This document shows, one piece after another, positions 1-64,000 of a stretch of DNA of 64,000 bases. Both the position numbers and the translations under genes were made by a program. The notes beneath the pieces were generated by a model. The model did not search any database, was not told the DNA's origin, and worked only from the letters and a program-made list of their open reading frames with translations. Source of the stretch: an uncultured Chloroflexia bacterium (GTDB taxonomy: Bacteria; Chloroflexota; Limnocylindria; Limnocylindrales; CSP1-4); NCBI GenBank assembly GCA_963832105.1, contig CAWHSS010000003.1, forward strand, positions 50,046-114,045, read 5' to 3'. Position 1 is the stretch's first letter; each line of letters starts with the position of its first letter.

Positions 1-187
1 GGGCGACAAGCTCGAGAGCGGCTGGACGGTCCTGTCATCCGCGATCACGGTCAGTGCCGTCGTCCCGGGCGCCACCGAGGCGAGCCTCCGCGAGGCGGCC
101 GACAAGGCGAAGGACGGCTGCCCGATCTCGAAGGCGCTGAAGGGCAACGTCGAACTCTCGGTCGAGGCGACGCTCGAGGGCGGCTGA
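1..187 (+). CDS. OsmC/Ohr family peroxiredoxin-like protein, C-terminal part (5' end outside window)
   Basis: Frame 2 reads ...KAKDGCPISKALKGNVELSVEATLEGG*. The conserved Cys and the KALKGNVE tail are typical of OsmC. Stop at 185-187. Confidence 0.6.
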   Translation, partial: GDKLESGWTVLSSAITVSAVVPGATEASLREAADKAKDGCPISKALKGNVELSVEATLEGG

Positions 188-224
188 GTCGCGGCGAGTC
201 CCGCGTCCGTCGCCTCGCCATCCG

Positions 225-400
225 TTCGCGGTTGGTCCGGCTGGCGGACCAACGGGCGAACGACATCCGCTGAATTGGTCGATTTGGGCCGGCCAACCGC
301 CGTGTGGTCCGGCTAGCGGACCAACGGGCGAACGACCCGCTGAATTCGGCCGATTTGGGCCCCGCCGACCGCCGCTTGGTCCGGCTAGCGGACCACGAAA
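225..400. repeat. About 2.3 tandem copies of a 71-bp unit, each carrying an 8-bp stem hairpin (TTGGTCCG-GCTAG-CGGACCAA)
   Basis: Direct read: ggtccggctggcggaccaacgggcgaacgacatccgctgaattggtcgatttgggcc is repeated at 233, 304 and 378. The + ORF at 304-540 (VRLADQRANDP...LVRLADH) is just a translation of this repeat. Confidence 0.8.
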
Positions 401-425
401 CTTGCCGGCTGCGTCGTCCGGGCGC

Positions 426-1371
426 TCAGCCGATCGTCAGCAGCCGCCGCGGGTTGTCGATCGTGATCGTCCGGATCTCGTCGTCCGAGACCCCCGCGGC
501 CCGGAGCCGTGGCAGGAACGCGTCGGCCAGGTACGTGTAGCCGTTGCCGCCGTAGTGGGCCAGCTGGGAGTCGTGGCAGACGTCCTGGGACAGCAGGATC
601 CGCTCGACGTGGCCCGCGGCCAGCAGGTCGCACAGCGACTCGACGATCCGGCCCTCGCCGTGGCGCTCCAGCGGCGTGAAGCTCATCCCGAGGAAGTCGA
701 ACTCGACCGACGCCCCGCGCTCCACGATCGCCCGATGGTAGGCCGGGTCGGGGTTGGAATCGGCGTGACCAATGACGACTCGTGACAGGTCGGCGCCCTC
801 CGCCTCGAATACGGTGAGCTGGTCGAGCCCGACGGTCGACTGGACCGCGTGCGTCGTGATCGCGAGCCCCGTCCGTCGCGCTGCCCGCGCGGCCGCTCGG
901 TGGACGCGTTCCTCGCGGGCCGAAAGCCACGGCTTGTCGGTGCCGATCTCGCCGATGATCCCGGCCTTGATTCCGCTCCCGGCAACGCCATCGGAGGCGT
1001 CGCGGACGATCTCGTCGGCAAGGTCGTCGACCGTTCGGCGATCGATCAGGGCCTCCGGCGGGTAGTGGGCCTCGCGATACCAGCCTGCACCCATGACGAT
1101 GTCCAGGCCGGTCGAGGCCGACAGGCCGGCCAGCCAGTCGGGGTCGCGCCCGACGCCCGGCAGGGTGAGATCGACGAGGCACGTGCCGCCCTTCTCGCCG
1201 GAACCGGGCGAGCTCGGCGGTGATGATCGGCTCGTCGCGCCGGAGCTCCCAGTAGTCCCAGCGGTTCGGGATGTGCCACAGCGCGATCGCCGTGTGCTCG
1301 TGGGGCAGCGTGAAGCCGAGGTTGCCCGGGTCGATCGGCCCGCGGACCGTCTGGACGTGGGCGTCGGTCAC
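426..1371 (-). CDS. phosphotriesterase-family (PTE/PHP) metal-dependent hydrolase; apparent frameshift near 1100-1200
   Basis: N-terminus MTDAHVQTVRGPIDPGNLGFTLPHEHT carries the PTE His-x-His metal motif. The body (ORF 426-1094: IGEIGTD..., TTHA..., LLSQDVCHDSQ) lies in a second frame. Confidence 0.7.
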
Positions 1372-2058
1372 GAAGCCCGGCTCGCCTTGAGCGAGACGTA
1401 GGGTCGCGAGGGCGCAGCCTCGAGCGGCACGGGAGGCGCCGCGTCGCGAGCCGCGAAGAGCAACTCCAGGATCGCCAGCGCCCGCTTCTCGGCGTCGTCT
1501 CGGCGGTAGGCCGGGCCGTCCTCGATCGCCTCGATCGTCAGCCCGTCGAGCAGTGCCGCGAACGCATGGGCGACGCTTTCCACGTCAAGCCATGGCGGAA
1601 GCTCACCGCGAACGACCCCCTCCTGGAGGAGCAGCGCGGTCGGGCCGACGATCTCCCGGCGCCGGCGTCGGACCATCTCCCGGATCGCCGGGTCGGCATC
1701 AACCTCGGCCCAGGCGAGCGTCATCAGGACAGACGTGCCCGTACCCGCGCGCTGCTCCTCGAACTGGTCGAAGAAGAAGCCGAGGGCCGTCGCGACCCGC
1801 TCCCGGTAGTCGGTGACGGTCGCCGAGCCGATCGCGCAGCTCGCCCAGCTCCTGGTCGGTGATGAGGTCGCAGCCCGCGAGGATCAGCTCGGACTTGCTC
1901 TTGAAATACGTGTAGATCGCGCCGACCGACAGCCCGGACTTGCGGACGATGTCCTGCATCGTCGCGCGGTGGAAGCCGTGCTCGGCGAACACCTCGATCG
2001 CCGCCCGGACGATCCGGTCGCGGACCGCTTGCTCGTGTTGAGCGCTGACGCGGGGCAT
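1368..2058 (-). CDS. TetR family transcriptional regulator; apparent frameshift about 1725-1800
   Basis: N-terminal HTH FHRATMQDIVRKSGLSVGAIYTYFKSKSEL (ORF 1699-2058), followed by a TetR C-terminal domain in ORF 1368-1724. Divergent from the MMPL gene. Confidence 0.7.
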
Positions 2059-2153
2059 GGCACCTCATCGGAAAAACGAATGGTCGCTCGCGGTAGCCTA
2101 CAGCGCCGCAATCCCAGTCCGCAACAGGAGACTGCAGTTCGGCATTGACAAAA

Positions 2154-5140: not shown

Positions 5141-6226
5141 TCAGGGAGGGGCCGGCGACACCTTCGTAGTGGCCGTGACCGGACCGGGCGCATCGACCAC
5201 CTCTGCCCCATCGATCGGCGGCGTATCGGCGGTGACGATCATGTCGTAGATCTCGACGATCGCCGGATCGAACTGCGTTCCCGCGTTCCGGTGAATCTCC
5301 TCCCAGGCCTGGTCCTCGGGGATGGACTTGCGGTAGACCCGGTCGTTCGTCATCGCGCTGAACGCGTCGGCGATCGAGATGATGCGGGCGCCGAGCGGGA
5401 TGTCGTCTGCCGGCCAGCCGGTCGGGATAGCCCGTGCCGTCGAATCGCTCGTGGTGGTGGCGAACGATCCTGGCGATGTCGGTCATCGCCTCGTGGGTCT
5501 GGACGATGGAACCGCCGATCTCGGCGTGACGCTGCATCTCGCGGTATTCCTCGTCCGTCAGCTTCCCGGGCTTCAGGAGGATCCGGTCGGCGATCGCGAT
5601 CTTGCCGACGTCGTGGAGATAGCCGCCGATCCGGATCGTCGTCCGCTCCTGCTCGGACAGGCCGAGCATCGTCGCGACCCGCTCGCCGAGCGTGCCGAGC
5701 TGCCGGCAATGGTCGCCGGTCTCGAGGTCGCGGGCCTCGATCGCCGCGGTGAGCGCGAGAGCGACGCCGTCGAGGATCGGCGTCAGCAGGCGGTACTGGA
5801 GCGCGTCGTGGCGAATCCGTGCCCGCTGCAGGGCGTTCCTGATCTCGGTCTCGAATTCCTCCGCGGTGAACGGCTTGATCAGCATCCCGGATGCGCCGTC
5901 GCGCAACGCCCGGATGGCGTTGTCGAGCGAGGCGTGGCCGGTGGCGACGATCACCGGGACCTGCGGGTCGCGAGCTCCGGATTTCGGCGAGGAACGCATG
6001 CCCATCCATGCCCGGCATCCGGATATCGGTAACGACCAGGTCGAAGTGTTCGGCGTCGAACAGGGCCAGCGCCGCGATCGGGCGTGGGCGCGGTCGATAC
6101 GTCCAGGTCCATCCGCTCGAGCAGCCTCGCGACCAGCCTGAGCAGGCCCGGCTCGTCGTCGACACACAGGACGCGCGGGCGGGGATGTCGCGTCGGGGGG
6201 CGTCGCGCCGGGGGCCGTCGGCTCAT
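5141..6226 (-). CDS. two-component response regulator with an HD-GYP c-di-GMP phosphodiesterase output domain; at least 2 apparent frameshifts
   Basis: REC domain (RVLCVDDEPGLLRLV...DLVVTDIRMPGMDGHAFLAEIRS...PVIVATGHASLDNAIRALRDGA). HD-GYP motifs HDVGKIAI and HHERFDGTGYP, with the C-terminus in ORF 5141-5353. The start ATG overlaps the kinase stop (ATGA). Confidence 0.75.
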
Positions 6227-8037
6227 GCGTGAACCGTCAGGTCGGAGGTGATCCCGGAATGGGCCGCGCCGGCCACGATCGGCAGGGTGATCTCGACGGT
6301 GGTCCCGACCCCTGGCGTGCTCTCGAGCGTGATCGTCCCGTTGTGGCTCTCGACGAGCCCCACGCTGACGGACAGGCCGAGTCCGGTCGAGCCGGCCGCG
6401 TGGCGCGCCGAGAAGAACGGCACAAAGGCCTGGGCGGCTACGCTTTGGTCCATCCCCACCCCATCGTCGATGATCCTCACGACTGCATCTGCGCCCCGGA
6501 TCGAAGTCTCGACCTGGAGCGTGCCGCCCTCTGGCATCGCCTGCATGGCGTTCGTGAGTACGTTCAGGATCACCTGCTGGATCGCTTGCGGATCGAGCTC
6601 GATGAGTGGCAGCTCGGCGTGCGACTCGCGGATGATAACCCCGCTCCGTGCGAGCGGGAAACGAACAAGTTCCAGCATGCGCCCGATCAGGTCGGGGAGA
6701 TCCGTCGGTACGAGCTGAGGTTCCTGGGGGCGGGCGAAGTCGCGAAGGGCTCGGACGATCGAGCGAGCACGCAACGCGGCATCCCGGATCTGTTCGACGT
6801 CCGGCCGGCGGGGATCCTCGGGCGCGATGTCCTCGAGCAGGATCTCCGAGAAGCCGAGGACGGCGGTCAGCGGGTTGTTCACCTCGTGGGCGACCCCTTC
6901 CGCCAGCTCGCCAACGGCCGCGAGCCGGGAAGCGTTGAGCAGCTGATCCTGCACCCGTTCGCGTTCCACGAGCTCGGCGCGGAGCTCGTCGACGAGGCGG
7001 TCGTTCTCGTCGTGGAGGGTCCGCACCTCGGCCAGGGTGTGGGTCCTCTCGCGCAGCAGCAGTGCCTGCCGGATTACGACGAGAATGCCGGTCACGAACG
7101 CGCCGATCCGGACGATTGTCGTCGACCGGTGGCGTCAGGGTGAGTAGGAGGGCGAGGAGAGAGACCGAGGCCGCCGTCGGACCGATCACCCGGGTCACGT
7201 AGCGGGTGGCCGCGACGTACCGCGGACTGTCGTCGGTCTCGTCGCGCCACGTTGCGGCACCCAACGCCGCGATCAGGGTCCCAACGGTGAACAGAACGCC
7301 GGGGATTCCGCCGGCCACTGTCCCGGTAACCGTCGGAACGATGAAACCGAGGTAGGCCAGCCCGATGATCGCGGAGCCGGCGATCAGGGCGAACCCGCCG
7401 TGCGGGGCCAGCGGCAGACCGGATCGCGCTGTTCGCCACGATGCCGGCAGCAGCGAGTCCGATGAAGGCCGTCGGAAATGCGATGGCGATGGCGCCACTG
7501 GCCGATGGAAGAGCGAGCGCGGCCTCGCCGTGGACCAGGATGAGGATCGTTCCGATGAGGATGACGAGGAGGGCCGAGTCAAAGTAGACGGCGACCTCTT
7601 CTGCGGCCGTCAGCCGACCGTGAACTGCCGTGCCCAGCATCAGGACGGCCGGCACGAAGAGGAGCCACGACAAAACTGTCGGCAATCGATGGGATCGATA
7701 TCACGTCGAGCGCGGCCAGCAGGCCCCACGTCACGTTCGCCAGCATCCACAGGCCGAAGGCGACGACGGCGAGCCGGCGGATGGTCCGGGCCCGCGGCGA
7801 TGTCCCTGGTGCCCGAGCGCCGACGATTGTGGCTGCAAACGCGACGATGCTGGCGAGGCTCCAGTGGAGGTTGTCCCAAAGGACGCTCAGCCCGCCGACA
7901 TTCGCCAGTGCCAGGATCATGAACGGTGCGGAGATCAGCACGCCGAGGAGAATCACCCGGACGGCGGGCTGCGCCAGCATCACGAACGGCGGCCCAATTC
8001 GGGCGTCGTCGTGTTCGGCGCTCTCGTGGCGAGACAT
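6223..8037 (-). CDS. membrane sensor histidine kinase (multi-TM sensor + HisKA + HATPase_c); at least 3 apparent frameshifts in the membrane part
   Basis: C-terminal 290 aa (ORF 6223-7095) show HEVNNPLTAV (H-box) and an N/G1/G2 ATPase-domain motif (GTGLGLS). ORFs 7092-7685, 7579-8037 and part of 5951-7582 contribute consecutive TM segments. Confidence 0.7.
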
Positions 8038-8072: not shown

Positions 8073-9476
8073 TCACCCGTTAGGGCGAGATTCGGGTACG
8101 GCGACCTGCGTAGTCGCGGTCAGCGTCGACTCCACCGCTTCCTCGATCGCGTCGCCCAGGACGACGGCGATCTGGCTGAGCTCGTCCTCCCCGACGACGA
8201 ACGGCGGCCCGACCAGGATCGTGTCGCCGTCGACGCCGTTCGCGTTGCCGGTCCCCGAGTAGAACAGGACGCCGCGGTCGCGTGCTGCGCGGAGGACGGC
8301 CTCGGTGAGCCGGACGGAGCGGGGAACCGGCTCCCGGGTCGCACGGTCGGCGACGAGCTCCACGCCGACGAGGAGTCCGCGGCCCCGGATCTCGCCCACG
8401 TTCGGGTGATCGCCGAGGCGTTTGCCGAGGAGCTCGCGAAGGCGCTCGCCCTTCGTCGCGCTGGCCTCGACGAGGTGTTCCTCCTCGATGATTCGGAGCA
8501 CCTCGAGGGCCGCTGCGGCGCCTGCCGGGGCGTGCGAGTAGGTGAACCCGTGGGTGAACCCGCCGCCGTTCATGACCGTGTCGTGAACCTCGCCCGACGC
8601 CGCGACGAATCCGAACGGCCAGTACCCCGACGTCGCCCCTTTGGCGGCGACGAGGATGTCTGGGCGGACGCCCCAGTGATCGAGCCCGAACCAGCGGCCC
8701 GTTCGCCCGAAGCCGGTCATCACCTCGTCGGCAATGAGCAGGACGTCGTGGCGGCGGCAGACCTCGGCGATCAGCGGCCAATAGCCGTCCGGCGGGACTA
8801 CCGCGCCGAGCGTCGCGCCGACGATCGGTTCCGCGACGAAGGCGGCCACCGTGTCAGGGCCGGCCGCCTCGATCGCCCGTTCGAGCTCCGCCGCGAGCTC
8901 CTGCGGATCCCCGAGGGCATGGCTGTCCGGCTCGCCGGCGCGGTACGGGTAGGCGGCCGACACATGACGGAAGCGACCGAGCCAGCCCTCGTACGGACGA
9001 CGAAGCGGCCGCCGCCCGGACAGGTCGAGGGCCCCGAGCGTGTTGCCGTGGTAGCTCCCCCACCGCGAGATCACGATCCAGCGGTCCGCCTGGCCGCGTG
9101 CGAGGTGGTACGCGCGGGCAAGCTTCAGGGCCGTCTCGGTCGCCTCCGAGCCGCCGCTGACCGGGTAGATCGCCGGGTCGTCGACGGGCAGCACGCGGCC
9201 GACCTCACGCGCGTAGGTCTCGATCGGCTCCGTCGTGAACACCGAACCGTGGGCGTACGCCAGGCGCGCGGCCTGGTTGCCGATCGCGTCGGCGATAGAC
9301 CGCCGCCCATGGCCGACGTTGACGACGATCGCCCCACCCGATGCGTCGAGATACGCCTTGCCCGCGGCGTCGATGATCGTCGAGCCGTGACCGTCGACGG
9401 CGATAGGCGGCGCCGGGTCGAGGGTCCGGCGGAAGACACGCCCCGAAGACGGCTCAGGCGCAACCGATGGGGACAT
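8073..9476 (-). CDS. class III (omega) aminotransferase, PLP-dependent
   Basis: 499-aa ORF with ISRWGSYHGNTLGALD...DEVMTGFGRTGRWFG...AAKGATSGY, a fold-type I class-III signature. Internal Met at 9476 is preferred over the GTG at 9572, which would overlap the divergent sigma gene. Confidence 0.8.
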   Translation of the reverse strand: MSPSVAPEPSSGRVFRRTLDPAPPIAVDGHGSTIIDAAGKAYLDASGGAIVVNVGHGRRSIADAIGNQAARLAYAHGSVFTTEPIETYAREVGRVLPVDDPAIYPVSGGSEATETALKLARAYHLARGQADRWIVISRWGSYHGNTLGALDLSGRRPLRRPYEGWLGRFRHVSAAYPYRAGEPDSHALGDPQELAAELERAIEAAGPDTVAAFVAEPIVGATLGAVVPPDGYWPLIAEVCRRHDVLLIADEVMTGFGRTGRWFGLDHWGVRPDILVAAKGATSGYWPFGFVAASGEVHDTVMNGGGFTHGFTYSHAPAGAAAALEVLRIIEEEHLVEASATKGERLRELLGKRLGDHPNVGEIRGRGLLVGVELVADRATREPVPRSVRLTEAVLRAARDRGVLFYSGTGNANGVDGDTILVGPPFVVGEDELSQIAVVLGDAIEEAVESTLTATTQVAVPESRPNG

Positions 9477-9535: not shown

Positions 9536-10129
9536 GTGTATCGACTACGGTTGACCGTGGAGGGCCGTCCACTGGAAGACGTTGAACTCATCGAACGCGC
9601 TAGATCTGGCGAGGTCATGGCCTACGAGGAACTGGTTCGCCGATACCAGGACGTCGCCGTCCGGACCGCCCATGTCATCTCGCCGGATGGTGATGCCGAA
9701 GACGCTGTCCAGGAGGCCTTCGTCAAGGCCTATGCCGCGCTGTCGCGGTTCCGAGTGGACGCGCCGTTTCGGCCGTGGCTCCTGCGCATCGTCGCCAACG
9801 AGGCCCGCAATCGCCGGAGGTCGGCCGGGCGACGAGCCGGGCTGGCCCTCCGCGCCGCCGAGGATCGCCGGCCGGGTGATGCGGCTCCATCGCCCGAGTC
9901 GGCGGTCCTCGCCGATGAGACGCGGCGGGCGCTCCTTGCCGCGATCAACGGCCTTCGAGACGAGGACCGCGAGATCATCGGGGCGCGCTACTTCCTCGAC
10001 CTGTCCGAGGCTGAGGCCGCCGAGACACTCGGGCTCCCGCGGGGGACCGTGAAGTCGAGGCTATCCCGGGCCTTGGGGAGACTCCGCGAACAGCTCGCGG
10101 CCGCGAACGGGGGGCCGGCCCATGACTGA
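9536..10129 (+). CDS. ECF (sigma-70 family) RNA polymerase sigma factor
   Basis: Region 2 (VQEAFVKAYAALSRFRVDAPFRPWLLRIVANEARN) and region 4 (REIIGARYFLDLSEAEAAETLGLPRGTVKSRLSRA). The exact start is uncertain. Confidence 0.8.
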   Translation: MYRLRLTVEGRPLEDVELIERARSGEVMAYEELVRRYQDVAVRTAHVISPDGDAEDAVQEAFVKAYAALSRFRVDAPFRPWLLRIVANEARNRRRSAGRRAGLALRAAEDRRPGDAAPSPESAVLADETRRALLAAINGLRDEDREIIGARYFLDLSEAEAAETLGLPRGTVKSRLSRALGRLREQLAAANGGPAHD

Positions 10130-13868: not shown

Positions 13869-13929
13869 GGCTCGATGATCCGGGCTGGGCGCGCGATCCC
13901 GGACCCACCCGAAGGTCCGCCCGGCCGGA

Positions 13930-14714: not shown

Positions 14715-14739
14715 CCTGCCCGCTCGTCCGCTGGCGGAC

Positions 14740-14930
14740 CGACGGGCGGGCCGAACGATCGAAGATCGGCCTACATTCGGACGCTCCTCCGCCGCCTCGT
14801 CCAGCCGACGGACGAACCGGCGGATGCGGGCCGAACGTCGTCGGACGACGACTCCTCCTCCGCTGGTTGGTCCGTGCTGGCGGGCCAGCGGGCGCGAGAC
14901 GGCCGACTCATCGGTACTCCCCGTAATCGA
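14740..14930. repeat. two copies of a REP-like hairpin element (same family as 225-400) in the CoA-transferase A/B intergenic spacer
   Basis: gtccgctggcggaccgacgggcgggccgaacgatcgaagatcggcc and ccgctggttggtccgtgctggcgggccagcgggcgcgagacggcc share the ggtccg...gctggcgg...acgggcg..acga core with the 71-bp tandem unit. Confidence 0.45.
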
Positions 14931-39256: not shown

Positions 39257-39337
39257 TTTGGCGGCATGTCTCCGGACGGTCCGGCGACGATAACGGCTAT
39301 TGGACGAATGCGCAATATCGTCTAGTCTGGTGGGACG

Positions 39338-43284: not shown

Positions 43285-43381
43285 CGGCATCGGGCCATGG
43301 TAGCGACGGGCCCGGCGCGGTACCGAACCGTGCGCCAGACCGGTTCAGGGAGCCCGGCGGCAAACGTTATCATCGCCGGAC

Positions 43382-45589: not shown

Positions 45590-45599
45590 ACCACGCGGT

Positions 45600-47094: not shown

Positions 47095-47175
47095 AGAGAC
47101 CTCGACTCGGGTTGGTAGGTCAGACGGTACCGCTCCGCCGAGGATGTGACTGCAAGGGCCCGAAGGCACATCCGC

Positions 47176-51092: not shown

Positions 51093-52149
51093 TCACCTCC
51101 CTTGCTGAGCGGGCGCCGGTCCTGTCGACGCCCGGACGATGAGTCGAGTCGCCAGCCGCCGGTGTCCCGGCGGCTCGCTCGTGCCTGCGATGACGGCGAG
51201 AGCAGGCGGGCAGCCTCCTCGCCCTTGCCGCGAATGGGTTGGTGGACGGTGGTGAGTGGCGGGTCCGTGGTCTGGGCGAGCTCGATGTCGTCGAAGCCGA
51301 CGACGCTCACGTCGCGCGGGATCGAGAGGCCATGGTCGCGGAGCGCCCGGATCGCACCGATCGCGATCGCGTCGCTCATCGCCAGGACCGCCGTCGGCCG
51401 GCGACCGGCCTCCCAGGCTCGTTCGAATGCGGCGACGCCGCCGCGCGAAAGTGGCCGGGCTGACGATGACGTCGCCATCCGCGTATCGTCGACGCCGACG
51501 GCGGTCAAGGCCGTGCGATAGCCGCGCAGCCGGCGCGCCACGACGTCCTCGGCGCCGCTCGGGGCATGCTCGGCCCGCTCGATCCCGACGACCACGACGT
51601 CGCGATGGCCCAGCTCGATCAGGTGTTCCGCGGCGGCCCGCGCCCCGCCCTCGTCGTCGACATCGACCGAGGCGACCTTGTCGAACGGGTCGGAGTCGAC
51701 CGTCGTCATCGGCAGGCCGGCGCGCGGATCTCCGCGATCTCCGGATGGTCCGCGGCCAGACCGATGGCGACCACACCGTCGACGGTCGCCCGAGCGATCG
51801 CCCGCGACAGGGAGCCGTGCAGCGGCGAGATGAAGTGGAGCCCGTAGCCGGCTTCCTCCGCGACCGCCGCGACCCCGGCGCTGAACATCCCGAAGAACGG
51901 GTTGGAGAAGATCGACGCCAGCGCCTGCGGCGTGAGCAGGCCGATCGTCCCGGTTCGCCGCTGGGTGAGCATCCGGGCGACCGGATCCGGCCGATAGCCG
52001 AGCGAATCGGCGATCTCCATGATCCGCGATGCCGTGTCCACGTTCAGCCGACCCGGATTGTTGAACGCGAACGACACGGCGGTCTTCGATACGCCGGCGG
52101 CTTCCGCCACGTCCGCGATCGTCACCCGTCGCGTGACTTGCTGCTCCAA
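51093..52149 (-). CDS. LacI family transcriptional regulator; apparent frameshift about 51700
   Basis: HTH VTIADVAEAAGVSKTAVSFAFNN (ORF 51706-52149); periplasmic-binding-fold effector domain in the 50786-52699 frame; C-terminus ...RLATRLIVRAST in ORF 51093-51776. Confidence 0.8.
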
Positions 52150-52340: not shown

Positions 52341-54514
52341 ATGGCCGAACCTGTCCGGTCGGATCTCACTCGCCCTGACGCTCCACAACCACCAGCCCGT
52401 CGGCAACTTCGGCTGGGTGATTGCCGAGACCTACGAGCGCGCCTACCTGCCCGATGCTCGAGGCCCTCGAACGCCACCCGGGCGTCCACCTCGCCCTCCA
52501 CTACACCGGTCCCCTCCTCGACTGGATCGCCGCCGAGCGGCCCGACGTTCTCGACCGCCTCGCCGCGCTCGTCGGCGCGCGGCCAGGTCGAGATCGTCGG
52601 CGGCGGCTGGTACGAGCCGGTCCTGGCCGCCCTGCCCGAGCGCGACCGGGTCGGCCAGCTCGTCCGGATGGCCGACGAGCTCGAGCGCCGCTTCGGCACG
52701 CGGCCGCGCGGCGCGTGGCTCGCCGAGCGGGTCTGGGAGCCGGACCTGCCGACCGTCGCTCATCACGGCCGGCTACGGCTGGACGGTCCTCGACGACGCC
52801 CACTTCCGGGCGGCGGCGATCCCCGAGGAGGCGCTCTGGGGCCCGTACACGACCGACGACCAGGGCAAGGTCCTGACGGTCTTCGGCACGGAGCAGGGCC
52901 TCCGCTACCGGATCCCGTTCTCCGAGGTCGAGCGACGTCATCGGCTACCTCCGCGACCACGCGACCGAGGCGGGCGACCGGGTCGGGACGATGGGCGACG
53001 ACGGCGAGAAGTTCGGTGGCTGGCCGAAGACCTTCGAGCACTGCTGGGGTCGATCCGGCTGGGTCGACGAATTCTTCACGGCGCTCGAGGCGAACGCCAG
53101 ACTGGCTGACGACCATCACGCCGTCGGGCTGGCTGGACGGCCACGGACCGGTCGGTCGGGTCTACCTGCCGACCGGGCTCCTACGCGGAGATGGGCGAGT
53201 GGGCACTGCCAGCCGACGAGGCGCTCGCGTTCGCCCGCGCCGTCAAGGAGGCCAAGGCCGCCGGGCCGGCCCGAGGCACGCTGGCTGCGCGGCGCGATCT
53301 GGCGCAACTTCCAGATCAAGTACCGCGAGGTCAACGACCTCCACAAGCAGATGCTCCGCGTCAGCGACCTCGTCGAGGCGATGCCGCGAGGCAGCGCCCG
53401 CGACGCCGCCCGCGACCACCTCTACGCCGGCCAGTCGAACGATCCTTACTGGCACGGCCTGTTCGGCGGGATCTACCTGCCCGACCTGCGGGTCGCGGCC
53501 CTCCGTCACCTGATCGCCGCCGAGGATCTCGCGCTTGGCGGCCCCGGTGCCCCGCGTCGCGTCCGGATTGCTCGTCGACCTCGATCTCGACGGGACCGAC
53601 GAGGTGCTTCTCGTCGGCGACGGCCAGATCGTCGCGGTCAAGCTCGATGAGGGGGCGGGCATCGGCCGCTGGGATCTGCGCGCCGCGCGGCACCCGCTGG
53701 CGGCGGTGATGCGGCGCCGACCGGAGGCCTACCACGAGAAGCTCCGCGAGCACGATCGAGCTGGCGGCACTCCGCCCCGGCGATCCGAGCGACGCCGAGT
53801 GAGCCCGCCTCGATCCACGACATCGTCATGGTGAAGCAGGAGGGCCTGTCGGAGCTCCTCCACTACGACCGATACGAGCGGCGATCCGGGCTCGTTCGCC
53901 TCCTCCCGACCTCGGCGACGGCGGCCGACTTCGATACGGGCACGCGCTCGCGACCTCGTGGCGGCGCCGGACGGGCCGTGGACTCTCGACTCGATCGGCC
54001 CCGACGAGGTCTCGGCGTCGTTCAGCGAGGGGCCTGTCGAGATCCGGAAGACGATCCGGATCGGTGGCGGACGGCTCGATCCGTCGCTCGCGGTCGAGGT
54101 CGAGGTCGCGAACACCTCCGGCAATCGCCTGGACGCGCTGCTCGGCATCGAATTCGCGGTCATGCTTCTCGGAGGCGGACACAATCCGGCGGCCTTCCAC
54201 GAAGTCGACGGACGGAAGATCGCCCATGACGAGCGGCTGGAGGTACGCGACATCGAACGCCTCGCGTCCGGCAACGAGCAGCTCGGCGTCGGGCTCGAGA
54301 CCGCGGTCGGACGGGCCGGTCAGACGCCTGGATCGCCCCGATCGAAAGCGTGTCGAACTCGGAGGCCGGCTTCGAGCTCGTCTACCAGGGCAGCGCCATC
54401 CTGCTGTTCCGCCCCATCGCGCTCGCCCCCGGTGAGCGCACCTCGCTGCGGGTCGACCAGCGCGTGACCGTGCGAGCGGACGTCTCGGCCCCGGAGGCCG
54501 CGGCCCGTCCGTGA
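52341..54514 (+). CDS. GH57 family alpha-amylase/4-alpha-glucanotransferase-like protein with a C-terminal DUF1925/1926-like domain; at least 5 apparent frameshifts
   Basis: LALTLHNHQPVGNFGWVIAETYERAYLP and GDDGEKFGGWP are GH57 motifs; YWHGLFGGIYLPDLR; C-terminal beta domain in ORF 53958-54467. Stop overlaps the next gene's GTG (GTGA). Confidence 0.7.
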
Positions 54515-55925
54515 CCCGCGGCCGTCTCGCCGTTCACGCCCACTTCTACCAGCCCTCCCGGGTCGATCCGTGGACCGGCCAGGTGCCGGTAGAGCCGTCG
54601 GCGGCGCCGTTCCACGACTGGAACGAGCGGGTCGATGCGGAGTGCTATCGACCGAACGCTGCGCGGGGCAACCTCGAGCGGATCTCCTGGGATCTCGGGC
54701 CGACGCTCGGATCGTGGCTCGCGGCCGAGGACCCGGCGACCCACGGTGCCTTCGTCGCGGCCGCGGCCGGCGGCGATGCCATGGCCCAGGCGTTCCATCA
54801 CTCGATCCTGCCGCTCGCCTCGGCCGCCGATCGACGGACGGAGATCCGGTGGGGCCTGCGCGAGTTCGAGATCCGCTTCGGCCGGCGCGCCGGCCGGGCT
54901 GTGGCTGCCCGAGACGGCCGTCGACCTGCCGACCCTCCGGATCGCGGCCGAGGAGGGCGTGCGCTACACGATCCTCGCCCCGTGGCAGACCGACTGACCC
55001 GGGGATCGATACCCGCCGGCCGTATCGCGTCGACGTCGGCGGCGGCCGCTTCGTGGTCGTGGTCTTCTACGACGCCGGGCTGTCGACGTCGGTCTCGTTC
55101 GAGCCGGAGGCGACGTCCGACGCGGACCGTTTCGCCCGCGAGCGGGTCGCCGCGCGGCTGGGCGGTGGCGACGTGGCGGACGGCCTGCCGCCGCTCGCGC
55201 TCATCGCGTCAGACGGCGAGCTCTACGGCCACCACCAGCAGTTCCGCGACCTCTTCCTCCAGCGCCTCGTCTCGCCGGAACCGGGATCCGCGGATCGCGG
55301 CTTCGACGTCGTCCGCCTCGCCGAGGCGATCGCCGAGGAGCCGGGCCGCCCTCACCCGGTCATCCGTATCGCGGATCGGACGTCGTGGAGCTGCCACCAC
55401 GGGGTGCTGCGCTGGTGGGCCGAATGCGCCGACGCGGCCGACGGCCGCTGGAAGGGTCCGCTGCGGGCGGCCTTCGAGCGGCTCGCCGGCGGGATCGACG
55501 TCGCCACCGAGGTGGCCTTCGATCGCCTCCCGGGTGCGCCCGACCCGTGGGCGCTGCGCGACGCCTGGGTCGATGTCGTGGTCGGGGCGACGACCGCCGA
55601 GGCGTTCGTGGCGGAACATGCGCCGGCCGTGACGACCGAGGCGGATCGCGGAATGATCGAGAGCCTGCTCGAGGCCCAGCGCTGGCGGCTGGCGATGTTC
55701 GCGAGCGACGGCTGGTTCTGGGACGACCCGATCCGCGTCGAGACCCGCCAGGTGCTGCGGGCCGCTGCCCGCGCGGCGCAGATCGTCGACGGCGTCGCCG
55801 GCACGACCCTGGAGGCCCGCCTCCTCGATGACCTGTCGCTGCTCGTCTCGCCATCGCGCGGCTTCGACGGCGCCGAGATCTACCGGATTGCCCTGGCCGA
55901 TGTCGGCCAGCCCGCGCCGGGGTGA
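54511..55925 (+). CDS. second GH57-like protein (DUF3536 family); at least 1 apparent frameshift about 54900-55000
   Basis: LAVHAHFYQPSR...PFHDWNERV...AFHHSILPLA is a GH57-like N-terminus. DUF3536-type C-terminus in ORF 54570-55925. Confidence 0.7.
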
Positions 55926-57270: not shown

Positions 57271-60200
57271 ATGCGGGAGCTGCGTGTCGGCAAGTCGTCA
57301 CGGAAGCGATACGACCTCGACGGCCGTCATCTCGGCTCGGACGGCCAGCTCCTCGTCGATGAGGTCGCCGCCGCCCGCCGGCTTGCCGCGCGGCTGAACG
57401 AGCGGGCAGCCGGCGGAGCCCCGAGCGCCCACGCCGGCGAGATCGTCGCCCTGGGGCTCCTCCACGAGATCGGCCACGCGCTCATCGACAACTACGAGCA
57501 GGAGGTCGCGCCGAACGTCTTCGGCGACGCCCTGGCCGAGCTCGACACGCAGCTCGGGCGGCGGAGCGTCGACGACGTCCTCGATCGGCTGTCCGCGGAG
57601 TTCGGTGCGGAGCCGGGTCGCCCGGACCTCCTCGAGTCGCTCCTGCTCCTCGACGTCGCCGCCGCGAACCCCGCGAGCCAGCCACTCCATCCGCTCGTCG
57701 ACCCGGGGCCTGTCGCCAAGGCCAAGGCGTACGCGGCGCTGACGAGCGGCATCGACGGCGTCTTCCGGGTCGACGGCGACCCGGCGGGCGGCGGCGAGAC
57801 GCTCGTCGATCTGCTCCGCGCGCCCGCGCGCCACTCGCCGACCTCGCTCGCGGGCCAGCTGCGGTACGCCCGCGACCGCTGGGGGAGCATCCTGCCGCCG
57901 GAGCTCGCGGCGCGCCTCGTCGCGGGCGAGGACCTGCTGGCGGAGGAGGAACGGGCCCTTCACCTGCGGTTCGGTGGCGGCGGCGGGGGCGGACCGGGCA
58001 CCGCGGAGGCGCCGTCCTTCGCCGGCGCCGACGTCGAGGCCGAGCGGTTCAGCGACGATCGCGACTGGATGCCGCGCCTCGTCCTTGCCGCCAAGAGCAC
58101 GTACGTCTGGCTCGATCAGCTGTCGCGTGGCTACGGCCGCGAGATCCGGACGCTCGATGCGATCCCCGACGAGGAGCTCGATCAGCTCGCGCGACGCGGG
58201 ATCACGGGGCTCTGGCTCATCGGCCTGTGGGAGCGCTCGACGGGCATCCGAGAAGATCAAGCGCTGGCGCGGCAACGAGGATGCCGTGGCCTCGGCGTAT
58301 TCCCTCGACGACTACCGGATCGCCGCCGACCTCGGTGGAGATGCTGCTCACGCGAACCTTCGCGATCGGGCCGCTGCGCGCGGCATCCGACTCGCGTCGG
58401 ACATGGTGCCCAACCACATGGGGATCGACTCGCGCTGGGTGATCGATCACCCGGATCGATTCATCTGGGTGCCCGAGCCGCCGTTCCCCGCCTACACGTA
58501 CACCGGCGACAACCTGGCCGACGACGATCGCGTCGAGATCCGCCTCGAGGACCACTACTGGAACGACACCGATGCCGCCGTCGTATTCGAGCGGCGCGAC
58601 CGGGCGACCGGCGACGTTCGGTACGTCTATCACGGCAACGACGGGACGAGCTTTCCGTGGAACGACACGGCCCAGCTCGACTACCTCAAGGCCGACGTCC
58701 GCGAGGCCGTCATCCAGACGATCCTCGAGGTCGCCCGGCGCTTTCCGGTGATCCGCTTCGACGCCGCGATGGTCCTCGCGAAGCGGCACATCGAGCGCCT
58801 CTGGTGGCCCGAGCCCGGCCAGGGCGGGGCGATCCCGTCGCGGAGCCACTACGCGATGACGAAGGCGGCGTTCGATGCGCTCATGCCCGACGAGTTCTGG
58901 CGCGAGGTCGTCGATCGGGTCGCCGCGGAGGCCCCGGACACGCTCCTCCTGGCCGAGGCCTTCTGGATGATGGAGGGCTACTTCGTCCGGACCCTCGGCA
59001 TGCACCGCGTCTACAACAGCGCGTTCATGCACATGCTCCGCGACGAGGACAACGCGGGCTACCGCAAGGTGATCCGCGACACCCTCGAGTTCGACCCCGA
59101 GATCATCAAGCGCTACGTGAACTTCATGACGAACCCGGACGAGGAGACGGCGATCGAGCAGTTCGGGACCGGCGACAAGTACTTCGGCGTGGCCACGCTC
59201 CTCGCGACGCTGCCCGGGCTGCCGATGATCGGCCACGGCCAGATCGAGGGCTTCGGCGAGAAGTACGGCATGGAGTTCCGCCGGGCCCGCCTCGACGAGC
59301 AGCCGAACGAGGAGCTGATCGCCCGGTTCGAACGGGAGATCGTGCCGCTCCTCCACGAGCGGGCGGCGCTACGCCGGCGCCGCCGACTTCCACCTCTACG
59401 ACGTCACGGGCGACGACGGGGCGATCGTCGACGACGTCTTCGCCTACTCGAACGGGCGCGGGCCGGATCGCTCGCTCGTCGTCTATCACAACCGGTTCGG
59501 GACGGCCGCGGGCTGGATCCGGGATGTCGGTGCCGTTCGCTCGCAAGGCCGGCGACGGGTCGAAGGCGCTCGCGACCGCCACGCTCTCCGGGGCATTCGA
59601 GATCCCGAGCGACCCCGACGTCTTCGTCGCCTTCCGGGAGGCGCGCTCCGGCCTCGAGTACCTGCGACCCGCCCGGGAGGTGGTCGAGCGCGGGCTCTTC
59701 GTGGAGCTCGACGCCTACCGCTGCCTCGTCTTCGGCTCGTTCAGGGAGCTCCGCCACGCGCCGGAGGAGCGCTGGGCAGAGCTGGCGGCGAGACTCGGCG
59801 GGGACCGGTGTGCCGTCCCTCGACGACGCCCTCGCCGACGTCCGGCTGGCACCCGTCCATGGCGCCGTCGCGGCGCTCCTCGCGCCGGATCTGGAGCCCG
59901 CCGAGGTCGCGCGTCGCCGAGCGGTGCTGATGGAGCGGGCGGGCCTGCCGGCCGAAGCGGCTGCCACCACGGTTCGCCGAGGTGCCACTCCCACTCCCCC
60001 ACCGTCCGACCTCGACCCGGCCGCTCGGGCGGCGGCACTGCTTCGGCCGATCGACAGGGCCCAGTTCGACGAACTTCGGCTTGGAAAGGCGCTCCGAGCG
60101 ATCGGTTTCGACGCGTGGGCCGTCGCGCGGATTCGGATCGCCCTGGGGCTCGCTCGGCCGTCGCAGGTCCGCGACCCGGCCCGGCTCGCCGCCGCGTGGC

Positions 60201-60433
60201 TCGACGACCACGAGATCCGGGCGTTCCTCGGTGTCAACACGTGGGAAGGCGTCGAGTGGTTCTCGAAGGAATCCTTCGAGACGCTGCTTGACCTGGCGGT
60301 CGCGCTCGATCGGGCCGACGGCGTCAGCCGGACCTCACCCGCGGTCGGCAAACTGCGGCGCGCGGCGGAGGCGGCCGGGTATCGGGTCGATCAGTTCCTC
60401 GCCGCGCTCCAGGCGCCGGCGAAAGCCGTCTAA
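57271..60433 (+). CDS. large (about 1050 aa) GH13 alpha-amylase-family protein with a roughly 300-aa N-terminal extension; at least 5 apparent frameshifts
   Basis: ELDQLARRGITGLWLIGLWERS (barrel beta-2-like); DMVPNHMG (region I, the TreY-like VPNHM form); AEAFWMMEGYF; GHGQIEGFGEKYGMEFRRARLDE; long C-terminal helical domain ending ...AALQAPAKAV*. Confidence 0.75.
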
Positions 60434-60485
60434 GCCGCCGGCAAGAAGGCACCGCGGCCTCGCTCGTCCTGACCTGTCGTCGGCC

Positions 60486-62284
60486 TCAGTCGCCGAGGAC
60501 AAGCCGCCGCAGGATCGGGATCGGTGGCGTGCCGTGGGCGAGGACGGATTCGAGGTGCTCCCGGTAGACGAAGCCGGGAGTCTCGCCGAGACCGCCGACG
60601 ACCCGCGGTTCGGGCACCGCGTCGGCGCCGCGCGCATCGCCCGACGCGGCGGCCAGCCGGCGCCGCCGTTCGCGCTCGAGATCCCACATCGCCATCGAGC
60701 CGACGAAGTACGTGCAGAGCTGGGTCGACGACAGCCGCGCGCGGTCGTACTTCGCCCGCGCCTCGGCCTCCTCCTGGAAGCCGCCGTCGACCATCAGCGA
60801 GACCGCCTCGTCCTCGGTCATGCCGGCCGTGTGGATCCCGACGTCGATCATCGCGTTCGTGACCGCCCGGAGGTAGAACTTCCAATGGGTCAGCAGCAGC
60901 GCCGGGTCGTCCGCCCCGTAGCCCTGCGTCGAGCATGACCTGCGTGACGTACACGGCCCAGCCCTCGGCGAACACGCCGCTGCCGAAGATGCTCCGCGCG
61001 ATCGAGGGGCAGCGGTTCGCGTAGACGCCCTGGAGGTAGTGGCCGGGCACCGCCTCGTGAATCGTCAGCAGCCGGAGCATCCGGTCGTTGTCCTCGCGGA
61101 GATACGACTCGGCCTGCTCGGCGGACCAATCGTCGGGGATCGGCGTCACGGAGAAGAACGTCTTCTGGCCCTTGTCGAGCGGTCCGGGCGAGTCGAGCAT
61201 CGCGCCACCGAACGACCGCATGAAAACCGGCGTCCAACGGATCTCGAGCGGGTCGTCGGCCAGGCCGATGAGATCGCGGTCCCGGCAGAACGCCTCGATC
61301 CGACCGAGCTCCTCGCGGCAGAAGTCGAGGATCGCCTCGCGCTCCGGATGCTCGAGGGCGATCGCGTCGAGCACCTCCCGGACCGCCGCCGAGTCGTCGT
61401 CCGGCACCGGGCCGTCCTTGAGCCACTGCGGCCCGATCTCGCGGGCGATCCGGACCATCTCGGCCCGGACCGCGGCGAACTCGGCGGCCGACTGCTTCGA
61501 GACGGAGTCGATCGTCACCTCGTCCGATCCGAACGTGTGGAACAGCTTCCGGGCGAACAGGTCGGCGCCCAGCCGGCCCTCCCCGTCCGAACCGGGCAGA
61601 ACCCCTTCTCGGAGATGGCGTTCGAACCCGGCGAGGGCCGTCCTCGCGACCTCTGCGGCCGCCCTGAGACGTGGGGCGACGGCGGCGACGGCCGAGTCGG
61701 TCGGCTCCGCGGCGGCCGCCGCGCCAAGCGCGTCGTCGATGAGCTCGGGGATGCCGGGGAGCTGGGCGATCGCCTTCTCCGTGTGGAATCGAGCCACCGG
61801 CCGGCCGTCGTGGCCGACGAGCGCGTCGCGCGCGGCGGACAGGACGAGCGGCATTCCCTCCAGGCGCCCGGCCACCGACGCGAGGCGATCGGCGAGCGGC
61901 GCAAAGTCGCGGGCGATCAGCGGGAAGATGCCGTCGCCGAGCAGATAGATCCAGTCGAGCGGGTTCCAGCGGTCCTCCCGCAGGTCCACCTCGCTGAACC
62001 GGTGGGCGTCGAGCACGGCCAGCAGGAGGTCCCGGTCGGCCCGCTCGTCGGGCGTCACCTGGGCTTCGTCGGACGCCTTGAGCTCCTCGCTCCAGCGGTC
62101 GTAGAAGGCCAGCCGCGCCTCTCGGCCGCCTTCGGTCAGGTCGGGCCAGCGGCCGTCGTGGTCGTGCATGCCGGCAGCCGTCGCGGCCAGCGGCAGGAGG
62201 CTGAAGTACTCGGCGAGAAACGCGTCGACGCGTGCGGAGAAGTCGGACACGGTGCCTCCGTCGAACATTGCGGGTGGAGGCCAT
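60486..62284 (-). CDS. DUF885 family protein (putative metallopeptidase-like); apparent frameshift about 60880
   Basis: HEAVPGHYLQ is the DUF885 signature. C-terminal 120 aa in ORF 60486-60851. Confidence 0.75.
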
Positions 62285-62298
62285 CGTACGATCCCGCG

Positions 62299-62895
62299 GT
62301 GACCGACGCCCTCCGCATCGAACCCGTGACCCTCGAGGGCCGCATCGTCCGGCTCGAGCCGCTGACGCTCGACCACATCCCGGGCCTCGCCGAGGTCGGG
62401 CTCGACGAGGAGATCTGGCGCTGGACGCTAGCCCGGCCGCGGTCGGAGGCGGACCTGCGCGAGTGGGCCGCCTCGACGATCGCGGCCCGCGACGCCGGCA
62501 CGGAGCTGCCGTTCGCCACGATCGACGCGGCGACGGGCCGCCCGATCGGCTCCAGCCGGTACCTGAACATCGTCATGGAGCACCGCCGGCTGGAGATCGG
62601 CTGGACGTGGGTGGCGCCGCCCTGGCAACGAACCGGCGCCAATCGAGAAGCGAAGCTGCTGATGCTGGAGCACGCGTTCGATCGCCTCGGCTGCCGGCGG
62701 GTCGAGTTCAAGACCGACTCGAACAACGAGAAGTCGCGCACGGCGCTGCTGGGCATCGGCGCTGCGTTCGAGGGCATCTTCCGCAATCACATGGTCACGC
62801 CCGGCGACGGGACGCGGCACTCCGCCTGGTACAGCGTGATCGACGAGGAGTGGCCGGCCGTTCGAGCGAGGCTCGAGGCGTCTCTCGGGCGCTGA
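62299..62895 (+). CDS. GNAT family N-acetyltransferase (RimJ/RimL-like)
   Basis: Tail of ORF 61039-62895, from a GTG start: IVRLEPLTLDH...YLNIVMEHRRLEIGWTWVAPPWQRTGANREAKLLMLEHAFDRLGCRRVEF is an acetyl-CoA-binding core. Confidence 0.75.
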   Translation: MTDALRIEPVTLEGRIVRLEPLTLDHIPGLAEVGLDEEIWRWTLARPRSEADLREWAASTIAARDAGTELPFATIDAATGRPIGSSRYLNIVMEHRRLEIGWTWVAPPWQRTGANREAKLLMLEHAFDRLGCRRVEFKTDSNNEKSRTALLGIGAAFEGIFRNHMVTPGDGTRHSAWYSVIDEEWPAVRARLEASLGR

Positions 62896-62992
62896 GGGAC
62901 GTCTCGTCCGCCCGCAACGTGCGGCGGGCCTCGCCAGCGCCCCCGGCGTCTGCCATCATCGCGCCACCGTCCGCACAGAGGGAGACGCACCA

Positions 62993-63403
62993 ATGGTCGA
63001 GCTGATCATCCGGATCCTCGTCAACGCGGCCGCCGTCTGGGTCGCGGTCCAGGTCCTGCCCGACAACCTGCTCTCGTTCGACTTCGGCAACGACTGGTGG
63101 AAGCTGCTCGCGGTTGCCCTGGTCTTCGCCCTGATCAACAGCTACATCAAGCCGATCGTCAAGGCCCTGTCGTTCCCGATCAGCATGATGACCCTCGGGC
63201 TCGTTGCCTTCGTCATCAACGCCTTGATGCTCCTCGTCGTTGCCTTCATCTCGGGCCAGCTGAAGCTCGGCTTCAAGGTCGGCGACTTCCCGCCGGACCT
63301 CGCGTCCTCCGACACGCTGGTCGGGGCGCTCGTCGCCTCGCTGATCATCAGCGTCGTCTCGACGCTCGCCAGCATCGCCTTGACGCCGCGCAAGCTCCTG
63401 TAG
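62993..63403 (+). CDS. phage-holin-family (4 TMS) membrane protein
   Basis: GAGGGAG RBS. 136 aa with four TM helices, the typical mycobacterial 4-TMS holin superfamily layout. Confidence 0.6.
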   Translation: MVELIIRILVNAAAVWVAVQVLPDNLLSFDFGNDWWKLLAVALVFALINSYIKPIVKALSFPISMMTLGLVAFVINALMLLVVAFISGQLKLGFKVGDFPPDLASSDTLVGALVASLIISVVSTLASIALTPRKLL

Positions 63404-63406
63404 GGC

Positions 63407-64000
63407 GTGGCCCGGATCGCGCGGAGCGCGAACGAGGGGGATCAGGACCGCCTCGCGGCCGTGGCCGGCGCGTTGCGCGAGGCCGCCGCCCGGCACGGGA
63501 CGCCCGCCTACGTCACTGACGCGGCCACGCTCGTGTCCGCCGGCCTCGAGCTGCGGGCCGCGTTCCCGGACCCGTGGATCCGCCAGTACTCGGTCAAGGC
63601 GAACGACGTTCCGGCGATCATCGCCGCGGTCGCTCAGAGCGCGGCGGCGGGCGCGAACGCCGTCTCGCGCGGCGAATGGGCGCTTGCCAGCCGCGCCGGA
63701 CTGCCGAACGCGGCGATCACGCTCGAGGGGGTCGGCAAGTCCGACGCGGACCTGCGGGCGGCGGTCCGAGCCGCCGCGGACGGCGATCCACTCCGCTGGG
63801 TTGCCGTCGAATCGGAGGCCGAGGTCGCGGTCCTGGCGGCGCTCGCCCGGCGAGCCGGCCTCGGGCGTGACGGCCGGCCGGCCCAGGACGTCCTGTTCCG
63901 GCTCAACCCGGACGTCGCCCCGGAAACCCATGCCGGATTGGCCGTCGGCGCCGGCGGCTCGAAGTTCGGCATGACCGAGGCCGAGCTGGCCGCCGCGCTG
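63407..64000 (+). CDS. lysA: diaminopimelate decarboxylase, N-terminal part (3' end outside window)
   Basis: Open frame from the GTG at 63407. HGTPAYVTDAATL...YSVKANDVPAII (PLP Lys)...GANAVSRGEWALA...LEGVGKSDADL matches the LysA N-terminal TIM-barrel. It is not in the supplied ORF list because it runs off the window. Confidence 0.8.
   Translation, partial: MARIARSANEGDQDRLAAVAGALREAAARHGTPAYVTDAATLVSAGLELRAAFPDPWIRQYSVKANDVPAIIAAVAQSAAAGANAVSRGEWALASRAGLPNAAITLEGVGKSDADLRAAVRAAADGDPLRWVAVESEAEVAVLAALARRAGLGRDGRPAQDVLFRLNPDVAPETHAGLAVGAGGSKFGMTEAELAAAL

Follow-up and report, generated by a model that had tools for sequence, protein, structure and literature searches.

Three described situations offer comparisons for the DNA analyzed here, a stretch of 64,000 nucleotides (hereafter called the window) of a contig from an uncultured Chloroflexota bacterium in which most assessable conserved genes are split across reading frames. 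Genomes of bacteria that recently became host-restricted, such as Mycobacterium leprae and Sodalis, carry stop codons, deletions, and expanded insertion sequence (IS) elements, and they show relaxed ratios of non-synonymous to synonymous substitution rates (dN/dS) and a bias toward deletion, while their essential genes remain intact. The window resembles these genomes in that a large fraction of its genes is interrupted by frameshifts. However, it differs from them in that internal stops and large deletions are absent, dN/dS is unchanged, the bias is toward insertion, and essential genes are hit. Programmed +1 ribosomal frameshifting of the prfB type occurs at single, motif-defined sites that are conserved in orthologues. 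The single-nucleotide +1 offset between gene halves is shared with the window, but the roughly 70 sites found here have no common slippery motif, and none was found in relatives.

The third comparison is with Nanopore-only or unpolished long-read (meta)genome assemblies, in which residual indels truncate or fragment gene calls, a problem that the IDEEL test measures (PMC9262707). The likeness here extends to shifts in conserved genes, gene halves that are both homologous to known proteins, no build-up of stop codons, and damage to essential genes. Moreover, relatives with short-read assemblies lack the shifts, the event rate is consistent with a low-coverage consensus, and a sibling Nanopore-only metagenome-assembled genome (MAG), L001, shows events of the same kind. 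The classical signature of such assemblies consists of insertions or deletions (indels), often deletions, in homopolymers, whereas in the window about 92% of the indels are insertions, most of them extend no run, and one-third create a GCGC tetramer. Overall, the breaks are very probably residual consensus indel errors in a long-read, probably Nanopore-only, metagenome contig whose genes are intact and under purifying selection. The phenomenon is almost certainly a problem of data quality and not a biological feature or new biology.

Frameshifts in Conserved Genes

Coordinates given below are positions within the window, which has a GC content of 70% throughout. A protein-guided scan of species-representative genomes placed the window in the Chloroflexota, among 'Ca. 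Limnocylindria / Limnocylindrales', and most of the nearest genomes are MAGs named 'MFD...bin' with Flye-style contig names. Frameshifts were located with a custom local protein-to-DNA aligner that has explicit +/-1 and +/-2 frameshift states. As references, we used intact orthologue proteins from syntenic contigs, namely L082, L083, and L086 from JGI, which have complete gene calls, L081 and L084 from ENA, and the MAG L001. The L081 contig is 96% identical to the window at the nucleotide level and, judged from this similarity, probably represents the same species, whereas L001 is 87% identical across window positions 25.8-48.2 kb. The L084 contig is itself fragmented and was used only where no better reference existed. 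Gap lists taken directly from blastn comparisons with relatives at 75-85% identity are too noisy for frameshift counts, and the protein-guided aligner was used in their place. Each extra base was positioned by maximizing nucleotide identity to the reference codons. Calls upstream of true starts that came from stop-to-stop open reading frames (ORFs) of L001 were excluded as spurious (-1 at 38058 in the amine oxidase gene, and +1/-1 at 43356/43379 in glgP). A reference-free test consisted of Viterbi segmentation on codon-position GC content (the GC3 frame model), and genes at the left end that are without close references were checked by the continuity of Pfam profiles across frames.

By these three independent and concordant lines of evidence, one or more frameshifts are present in each of 33 genes out of about 52 that could be assessed, which bears out the claim of a preliminary description of the window that at least 30 conserved genes are split across frames. 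Altogether there are about 88 events, which corresponds to about 1.7 per kb of coding sequence, and 77 of these are robust. The frameshift-aware alignment of orthologues, which that description had proposed as a check, located 79 events (68 robust) over 41 genes and 15,318 aligned codons, and Pfam and GC3 evidence supports nine further events in five genes at the left end. A GC3 frame switch lies within 40 nt of 55 of the 79 reference-based events. Under the GC3 model, the window falls into about 124 segments, and the frame switches dozens of times without a change of strand; between 52369 and 55922 the frame changes every 100-300 bp. When the same procedure was applied to controls, JGI contigs compared with each other gave no events, L081 gave none, and L001 gave two, in genes where the window carries about 20.

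The frameshifts, their positions, and their direction are present in the sequence. As had been described earlier, the frame switches occur within conserved domains, and both sides of each are homologous to one orthologue. The references are covered essentially end to end, the corrected translations match them perfectly up to each junction, and Pfam profile coordinates of the left-end genes run on across frames. Every gene family listed in the preliminary description is affected, except that for gabT this applies to only one of two Aminotran_3 genes (15874-17239), the other (8082-9437) being intact. Likewise, six of the seven translational-coupling overlaps that had been reported as preserved are exactly as stated (at 6223, 23836, 24824, 25739, 27568, and 54511), but the seventh, which had been given as a 4-mer at 10126, is an 8-nt overlap, ATGACTGA, at 10122-10129.

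Evidence for Error Rather Than Decay

Frameshifts that are truly present in the DNA would imply a very recent mass pseudogenization, caused, for example, by host restriction or a population bottleneck. The dense frameshifts, the majority of genes affected, and the peak of event density in one dispensable-looking carbohydrate cluster all suit this explanation, but we consider it very improbable. As the preliminary description had noted, stop codons have not accumulated: none interrupts the 15,318 codons that were aligned, and the alignments show no large deletions either. Neutral decay that gathers 3-12 indels per gene should leave many non-synonymous changes and stop codons. The dN/dS values of shifted genes (0.02-0.2), however, are the same as those of intact genes. 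The HAD hydrolase gene carries three frameshifts, yet it differs from its L081 counterpart by 18 synonymous and only 2 non-synonymous changes (dN/dS 0.04). Other shifted genes have values of 0.02 (aldehyde dehydrogenase, Aldedh), 0.08 (one ABC ATPase), 0.09 (glgP), 0.12 (glgA), and 0.12 (GH13), compared with 0.09 (amine oxidase), 0.09 (the TetR gene at 39326-39949), and 0.21 (GCV_T) for intact neighbors. Values obtained against references at 62-70% identity (GH57, the large GH13, and DUF885) are saturated and uninformative.

Several further observations run counter to pseudogenization. The frameshift-aware alignments place events in ftsH, dapA, dapB, dapH, and a fabI-like gene, all of which are generally regarded as essential, and the first three and the last of these had been singled out before on the same grounds. 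Real bacterial pseudogenes show a deletion bias, which is opposite to the 12:1 insertion bias seen here. In addition, the window has 70% GC and belongs to a 1.39-Mb contig of a soil lineage. Relatives also lack these shifts: L081 is intact in the Aldedh, HAD, and copper-binding genes, where the window carries seven events, the L082, L083, and L086 contigs are intact, and L001 has no shift at the window's sites.

The L001 sequence is informative in a second way. Relative to the JGI references, it has six frameshifts of its own, all of them +1, of which four are in an alpha/beta hydrolase gene (L001:6437-7207), one is in a permease gene (L001:118), and one is in dapH (L001:20602), and none coincides with a shifted site of the window. 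Thus, an error signature is common to the assemblies, while the sites are not common to the lineages. Taken together, the absence of stops, the unchanged dN/dS, the intact contig at 96% identity, the hits in essential genes, and the L001 signature provide strong, though indirect, support for the earlier proposal that the breaks are errors rather than pseudogenes.

The almost uniform +1 direction of the shifts might also bring to mind biological recoding, in which widespread +1 shifts are tolerated or used via ribosomal frameshifting or transcript slippage. We give this idea practically no credence. The site contexts are heterogeneous and have no common slippery or stop-codon motif, orthologues in close relatives are unshifted, +2 events are frequent, and some events are -1. 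Furthermore, compensated clusters of events scramble conserved residues. We know of no bacterial precedent for recoding at such density.

One such compensated cluster is found in the Aldedh gene, whose product has 527 amino acids in the window and 526 in all relatives. The segment FKPSSAAPM-SGVKL (FKPSSAAPM-SGVKLIEAYRDAG), which is conserved in all compared relatives, here reads FKP-SARPRRCRASSS (FKP-SARPRRCRASSSIEAYRDAG), with 11 out-of-frame, Arg-rich residues between two insertions, and the rest of the protein is 98% identical to protein P0002. The window ORF (17992-19575, minus strand) is identical to a public protein, P0001, that is present in NCBI/ENA on a contig of 1,385,240 bp. Because the scrambled protein is public, at least the two Aldedh events belong to the deposit and are not later additions. 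It is therefore extremely unlikely that the indels were added after deposition by data handling or by simulation of the window, an idea that nothing specific favors, given that the 527-residue product appears verbatim, scrambled residues included, in a public collection.

Anatomy of the Indels

The 77 robust events comprise 71 insertions and 6 deletions (about 92% insertions, or about 12:1). The insertions are +1, or else +2 events that resolve at the DNA level into two nearby +1 insertions, and all nine left-end shifts are +1 by frame order, as calibrated on the HAD gene. The preliminary description had suggested that the indels might lie in homopolymer (G/C) runs, and this expectation was not borne out. 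For the 32 well-placed +1 insertions, the run that includes the added base has length 1 in 19 cases, length 2 in 8, length 3 in 4, and length 5 in 1. In other words, the added base differs from both of its neighbors in 19 of 32 insertions, and runs of three or more result in only 5 of 32. Under a random-insertion null, runs of 1, 2, 3, and 4 bases would be expected in 49%, 32%, 15%, and 4% of cases, whereas a slippage model predicts zero events of run length 1. The observed lengths match the former and are incompatible with the latter, and homopolymer slippage was rejected because 19 of the 32 insertions extend no existing run. The predominance of insertions is also unlike the deletion-prone picture of homopolymer error.

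The inserted bases follow the composition of the genome (G 10, C 7, T 3, and A 3 among the 23 best-localized events). In this small sample, the inserted base falls within a GCGC tetramer in 8 of the 23 cases versus 1.07 expected (binomial p = 6e-6), and the usual pattern is a CC or GG pair interrupted by the complementary base. The best-localized sites include 19771, 19710, 21226, 31801, 43190, 43048, and 50292. This GCGC context may be an effect of the basecaller, the polisher, or methylation. Event density along the window is uneven (chi-square p = 2e-5): the intervals 8-12 kb and 36-40 kb are free of events, whereas the region 48-60 kb has 10-14 of them per 4 kb. Both the uneven density and the GCGC bias fit a technical process that depends on context and coverage. 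Frame-restoring clusters, such as the +2/+1 pair 34 nt apart in the aldehyde dehydrogenase gene and the three +1 events within 90 nt in ftsH, are by our estimate roughly expected by chance at the observed rate.

A more specific mechanism for such an artefact is that the consensus or polishing step kept both alleles at single-nucleotide polymorphisms between strains of a mixed population (C/G becoming 'CG'), which would leave insertions beside variable third codon positions. This possibility deserves consideration, although we think that it is probably not the explanation. It would account for insertions that are non-homopolymeric and composition-like, and the strong variation in density along the contig is as strain heterogeneity would cause. 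Among 16 uniquely placed insertions, 13 adjoin codon position 3, and 11 of these 13 would be synonymous alternative alleles. However, 13 of 16 compares with 10.7 expected in a codon-slot test and is not significant, and third-position synonymy is to be expected anyway in genes with 70% GC. The GCGC bias, for its part, points at least equally to a context effect of the basecaller or polisher.

Source of the Extra Bases

The MFD-LR catalogue, which includes L001 and most of the closest genomes, is Nanopore-only and was assembled with Flye followed by one round of Medaka, and its authors report that they looked for errors associated with Nanopore sequencing in MAGs of lower coverage (PMC12313526). 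According to earlier work by the same group, Nanopore bins with a coverage of less than about 40x have to be polished with short reads if gene truncation driven by indels is to be avoided (PMC9262707). The 1,385,240-bp length of the contig that encodes P0001 suggests that the window, too, derives from a long-read assembly, and the wording of the preliminary description, an unpolished long-read assembly, is plausible.

Under this explanation by consensus error, the insertions would arise at the consensus or polishing stage from low coverage or from strain variation that had been collapsed. The consensus would then carry residual indels, about 92% of them spurious single-base insertions that are random with respect to homopolymers and about one-third of which create GCGC. 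Each insertion would shift the frame, such that ORF calling would fragment, fuse, or scramble about two-thirds of the genes. A basecaller or polisher bias related to GCGC is compatible with the data as well. From comparison of the sequences, we infer that the extra bases would be missing from the real DNA and that low coverage or collapsed strain variation might be their source.

Several points weigh against this explanation. The insertion-dominated, non-homopolymer profile is not that of textbook Nanopore error, and the exact mechanism is accordingly uncertain. Event density also peaks in one functional cluster, the glycogen/maltooligosaccharide genes at 48-60 kb, and this peak, taken alone, could be read as selective decay. 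In that part of the cluster, the references are only 62-70% identical, some calls are weak, and dN/dS carries no information. On the other hand, the glgA, glgP, and GH13 genes of the glycogen cluster have low dN/dS relative to a close relative, which is unlike decay.

There is a very slim chance that the extra bases are real. Real extra bases would mean that a free-living soil member of the Chloroflexota with 70% GC harbors about 1.7 single-base insertions per kb in genes that strong purifying selection otherwise maintains. This situation would require either an extraordinarily recent, insertion-biased mutational burst or genome-wide read-through of +1 shifts. In a milder reading, the extra bases may represent an under-described, insertion-type error mode of the Nanopore/Medaka consensus in GCGC contexts of high-GC genomes, and this error mode would be seeding scrambled and fused proteins into public databases.

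Long ORFs and Consequences for Annotation

The very long Arg/Pro-rich ORFs of the window had been described as read-through artefacts, which is true of only a few of them. Per 10 kb, the window contains 18 open frames that are 250 codons or longer, and intact short-read relatives contain 16-22. Because the density is equal in intact relatives, most of these ORFs are ordinary off-frame ORFs of DNA with 70% GC. True frameshift chimeras do exist, including a 601-residue ORF (27568-29373) from the dapB-dapA region that joins DapB_C to DHDPS and a 968-residue ftsH ORF (30175-33081) that runs past the normal end of the gene as a result of a C-terminal shift.

Any ORF-based annotation of the contig, whether for metabolic reconstruction, completeness estimates, or pseudogene counts, will be fragmented, fused, or locally scrambled. 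Faulty proteins appear to be public already, as exemplified by P0001 with its 11-residue out-of-frame segment in a conserved region of the aldehyde dehydrogenase. Because the profile is insertion-dominated, non-homopolymeric, and GCGC-enriched, correction tools that focus on homopolymers would miss most of the errors, and frameshift-aware, homology-guided correction or short-read polishing is needed. A cluster mate of P0001, named P0124, has 790 amino acids compared with 526 in relatives, is encoded on a different contig of 797 kb, and resembles a read-through fusion. On long ENA contigs, homologues of the large GH13 protein vary widely in length (357-651 amino acids), and this scatter suggests that the same fragmentation is widespread.

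Shifted Genes from the Left End to 30 kb

The genes described here and below lie on the minus strand unless the plus strand is given. At the left end, a phosphotriesterase-family (PTE) gene (429-1480, the upper end being approximate) has a +1 event near 1197, where the GC3 frame switches from -0 to -2. Its C-terminal fragment corresponds to positions 50-298 of the Pfam PTE profile. The 74-residue N-terminal fragment, in the other frame, had no Pfam match, and we take it to belong to PTE by its GFTLPHEH motif together with the GC3 switch. In the TetR regulator gene (1368-2058), a +1 event near 1831 separates TetR_N in frame -0 from TetR_C_6 in frame -2. The gene for a response regulator with an HD-GYP domain (5141-6226) has +1 events near 6077, 5970, and 5407; its Response_reg profile is spread over three frames (positions 1-31, 33-67, and 71-110) and its HD_5 profile over two (7-120 and 120-170). 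The sensor histidine kinase gene (6223-8037) is probably split as well, by +1 events near 7676, 7417, and 7115 in its membrane N-terminal part, as suggested by GC3 switches and by plausible transmembrane translations in three frames. A second HD-GYP protein gene (12419-13880, the upper end again being approximate) has a +1 event near 12702 that divides HD_5 positions 3-85 and 87-165 between two frames. The window encodes two signaling proteins of the HD-GYP type (HD_5), at 5141-6226 and 12419-13880, one of which has a fused receiver domain and shows translational coupling with a histidine kinase.

The CoA-transferase region (13933-15842) encodes proteins that are 84-89% identical to those of L083, and alignment to these proteins reveals a +2 event at 15537 in subunit A (14911-15842) and +1 events at 14515 and 14016 in subunit B (13933-14696), with GC3 switches no more than 26 nt away. 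The gabT-like Aminotran_3 gene (15874-17239) has a +1 event at 16326 relative to its 455-residue L083 orthologue (86% identity), and its ORF spans only positions 10-281 of the 403-position Pfam profile. The gene for a copper-binding (cupredoxin-like) protein (17336-17843; 92% identity to the L081 protein) has a +1 event at 17359, where there is also a gap in the DNA alignment with L081. The compensated pair in the aldehyde (P5C) dehydrogenase gene (17995-19575) consists of +2 at 18931 and +1 at 18897, on which three references agree. In the HAD hydrolase gene (19624-20472), +1 events are found at 20201, 19771, and 19710 with GC3 switches within 9 nt, and the corrected protein is 99% identical to that of L081.

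An adh_short / FabI-like reductase gene on the plus strand (20513-21291; 95% identity to L082) carries +1 events at 20829 and 21226, each within 8 nt of a GC3 switch. In the JGI contig L083 (L083:3900-4679), the gene calls divide a short-chain dehydrogenase / FabI-like gene into pieces of 102 and 144 amino acids, which may reflect an error in that reference contig or a copy that is genuinely disrupted.

The next group of ABC genes (23839-26771) encodes proteins that are 91-96% identical to those of L082, and the same single-base gaps appear relative to L001. It includes an ABC ATPase (23839-24827) with +2 at 24771, an ABC-2 membrane protein (24827-25742) with +1 at 25672, and another ABC ATPase (25732-26771) with +1 at 26491, 26172, and 26075 and -1 at 25764. 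A 45-bp stretch (23068-23112), an in-frame length, is present in the window and not in L082, and it is located just downstream of the stop codon of an ABC-2 membrane gene. The ABC-2 membrane protein of window positions 23114-23839 has an identical counterpart on a Logan contig of 1.5 kb from the run ERR11593883, and this run may hold reads of the same strain.

Alignments to both L082 and L001 support the events in the three dap genes, which are +1 at 27477 in dapH (26791-27571), +2 at 28530 in dapA (27571-28553), and +1 at 28664 in dapB (28584-29307). Upstream of dapB, at intergenic position 29358, the window has a run of six A residues where L001 has seven. This is among the few differences in a long homopolymer, and either true variation or a homopolymer error of the classical kind may account for it.

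Shifted Genes from 30 to 64 kb

The ftsH gene (30651-33144) has +1 events at 31832, 31801, and 31743, which fall within 90 nt and restore the frame, and a -2 event at 30713 near the C-terminus that is less certain, being in a divergent tail. The alignment to the L001 ORF (87% identity) and single-base gaps relative to L001 support the assignment, and Pfam AAA and Peptidase_M41 are matched. A gene for a CHRD-domain protein (34468-35075) has a -1 event at 34578, 2 nt from a GC3 switch; it is 91% identical to an L001 ORF, and that orthologue matches Pfam CHRD. The gene for a low-complexity, coiled-coil-like protein (35189-36297; 72% identity to the L001 ORF) has a +1 event at 35762, and possibly more, with a single-base gap at 35764 relative to L001 and a GC3 switch 8 nt away. 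An alpha/beta hydrolase gene on the plus strand (40722-41588) has +1 at 41386 and +2 at 41520 by alignment to L086, with GC3 switches no more than 13 nt away; this is the gene in which L001 has four +1 events at other positions.

The glycogen/maltooligosaccharide cluster (41.8-60.4 kb) comprises glgA, glgP, a GH13 gene, genes for two permeases and a solute-binding protein, a LacI regulator gene, two GH57 genes (one with DUF3536), a GntR gene, and a GH13 gene for a protein of about 1,060 amino acids, and this gene order is kept in L086. The L001 and L086 references agree on the +1 positions in glgA glycogen synthase (41809-43344; 43190, 43048, and 42096) and in glgP glycogen phosphorylase (43400-45613, plus strand; 43569, 43840, and 44276-44282). 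For glgP, tblastn matches pass through frames 2, 3, 1, and 2, and GC3 switches are within 5 nt. The gene for a GH13 alpha-amylase of the 491-residue class (45606-47097; 89% identity to L001) has +1 events at 46877, 46171, 46140, and 45911.

Genes of the maltooligosaccharide-type ABC transporter are 84-92% identical to their L086 references. Permease 2 (47548-48490) has +1 at 48477, permease 1 (48529-49536) has -1 at 49459 and +1 at 48816, and the solute-binding protein gene (49689-50949) has six events. Four more proteins (P0259-P0262) give identical positions for both permease 1 events, and after correction permease 1 shares 96% identity with P0259 across its full 336 residues. In the gene for the LacI-family regulator (51096-52143; 70% identity to L086), -1 events at 51724 and 51200 are both within 7 nt of GC3 switches, and there are weak +2/+1 calls near 51485/51445.

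Both GH57 genes are on the plus strand and were aligned to L086/L084 references. The gene for the 776-residue class (52360-54512) has 12 events, the GH57/DUF3536 gene (54511-55919) has +1 events at 54890 and 54993, and a GC3 switch lies within 40 nt of 12 of these 14. The large GH13-family gene (57271-60440, plus strand), which is 62-77% identical to references from L086, L085, and L084, has robust +1 events at 58241, 59364, 59527, and 59801, all within 8 nt of GC3 switches, in addition to several weak calls. Finally, a gene for a DUF885 protein (60354-62250; 64% identity to L084) has two +1 events, a robust one at 60923 and another at 60458, both of which are within 9 nt of GC3 switches, together with a weak -1 call at 60567.

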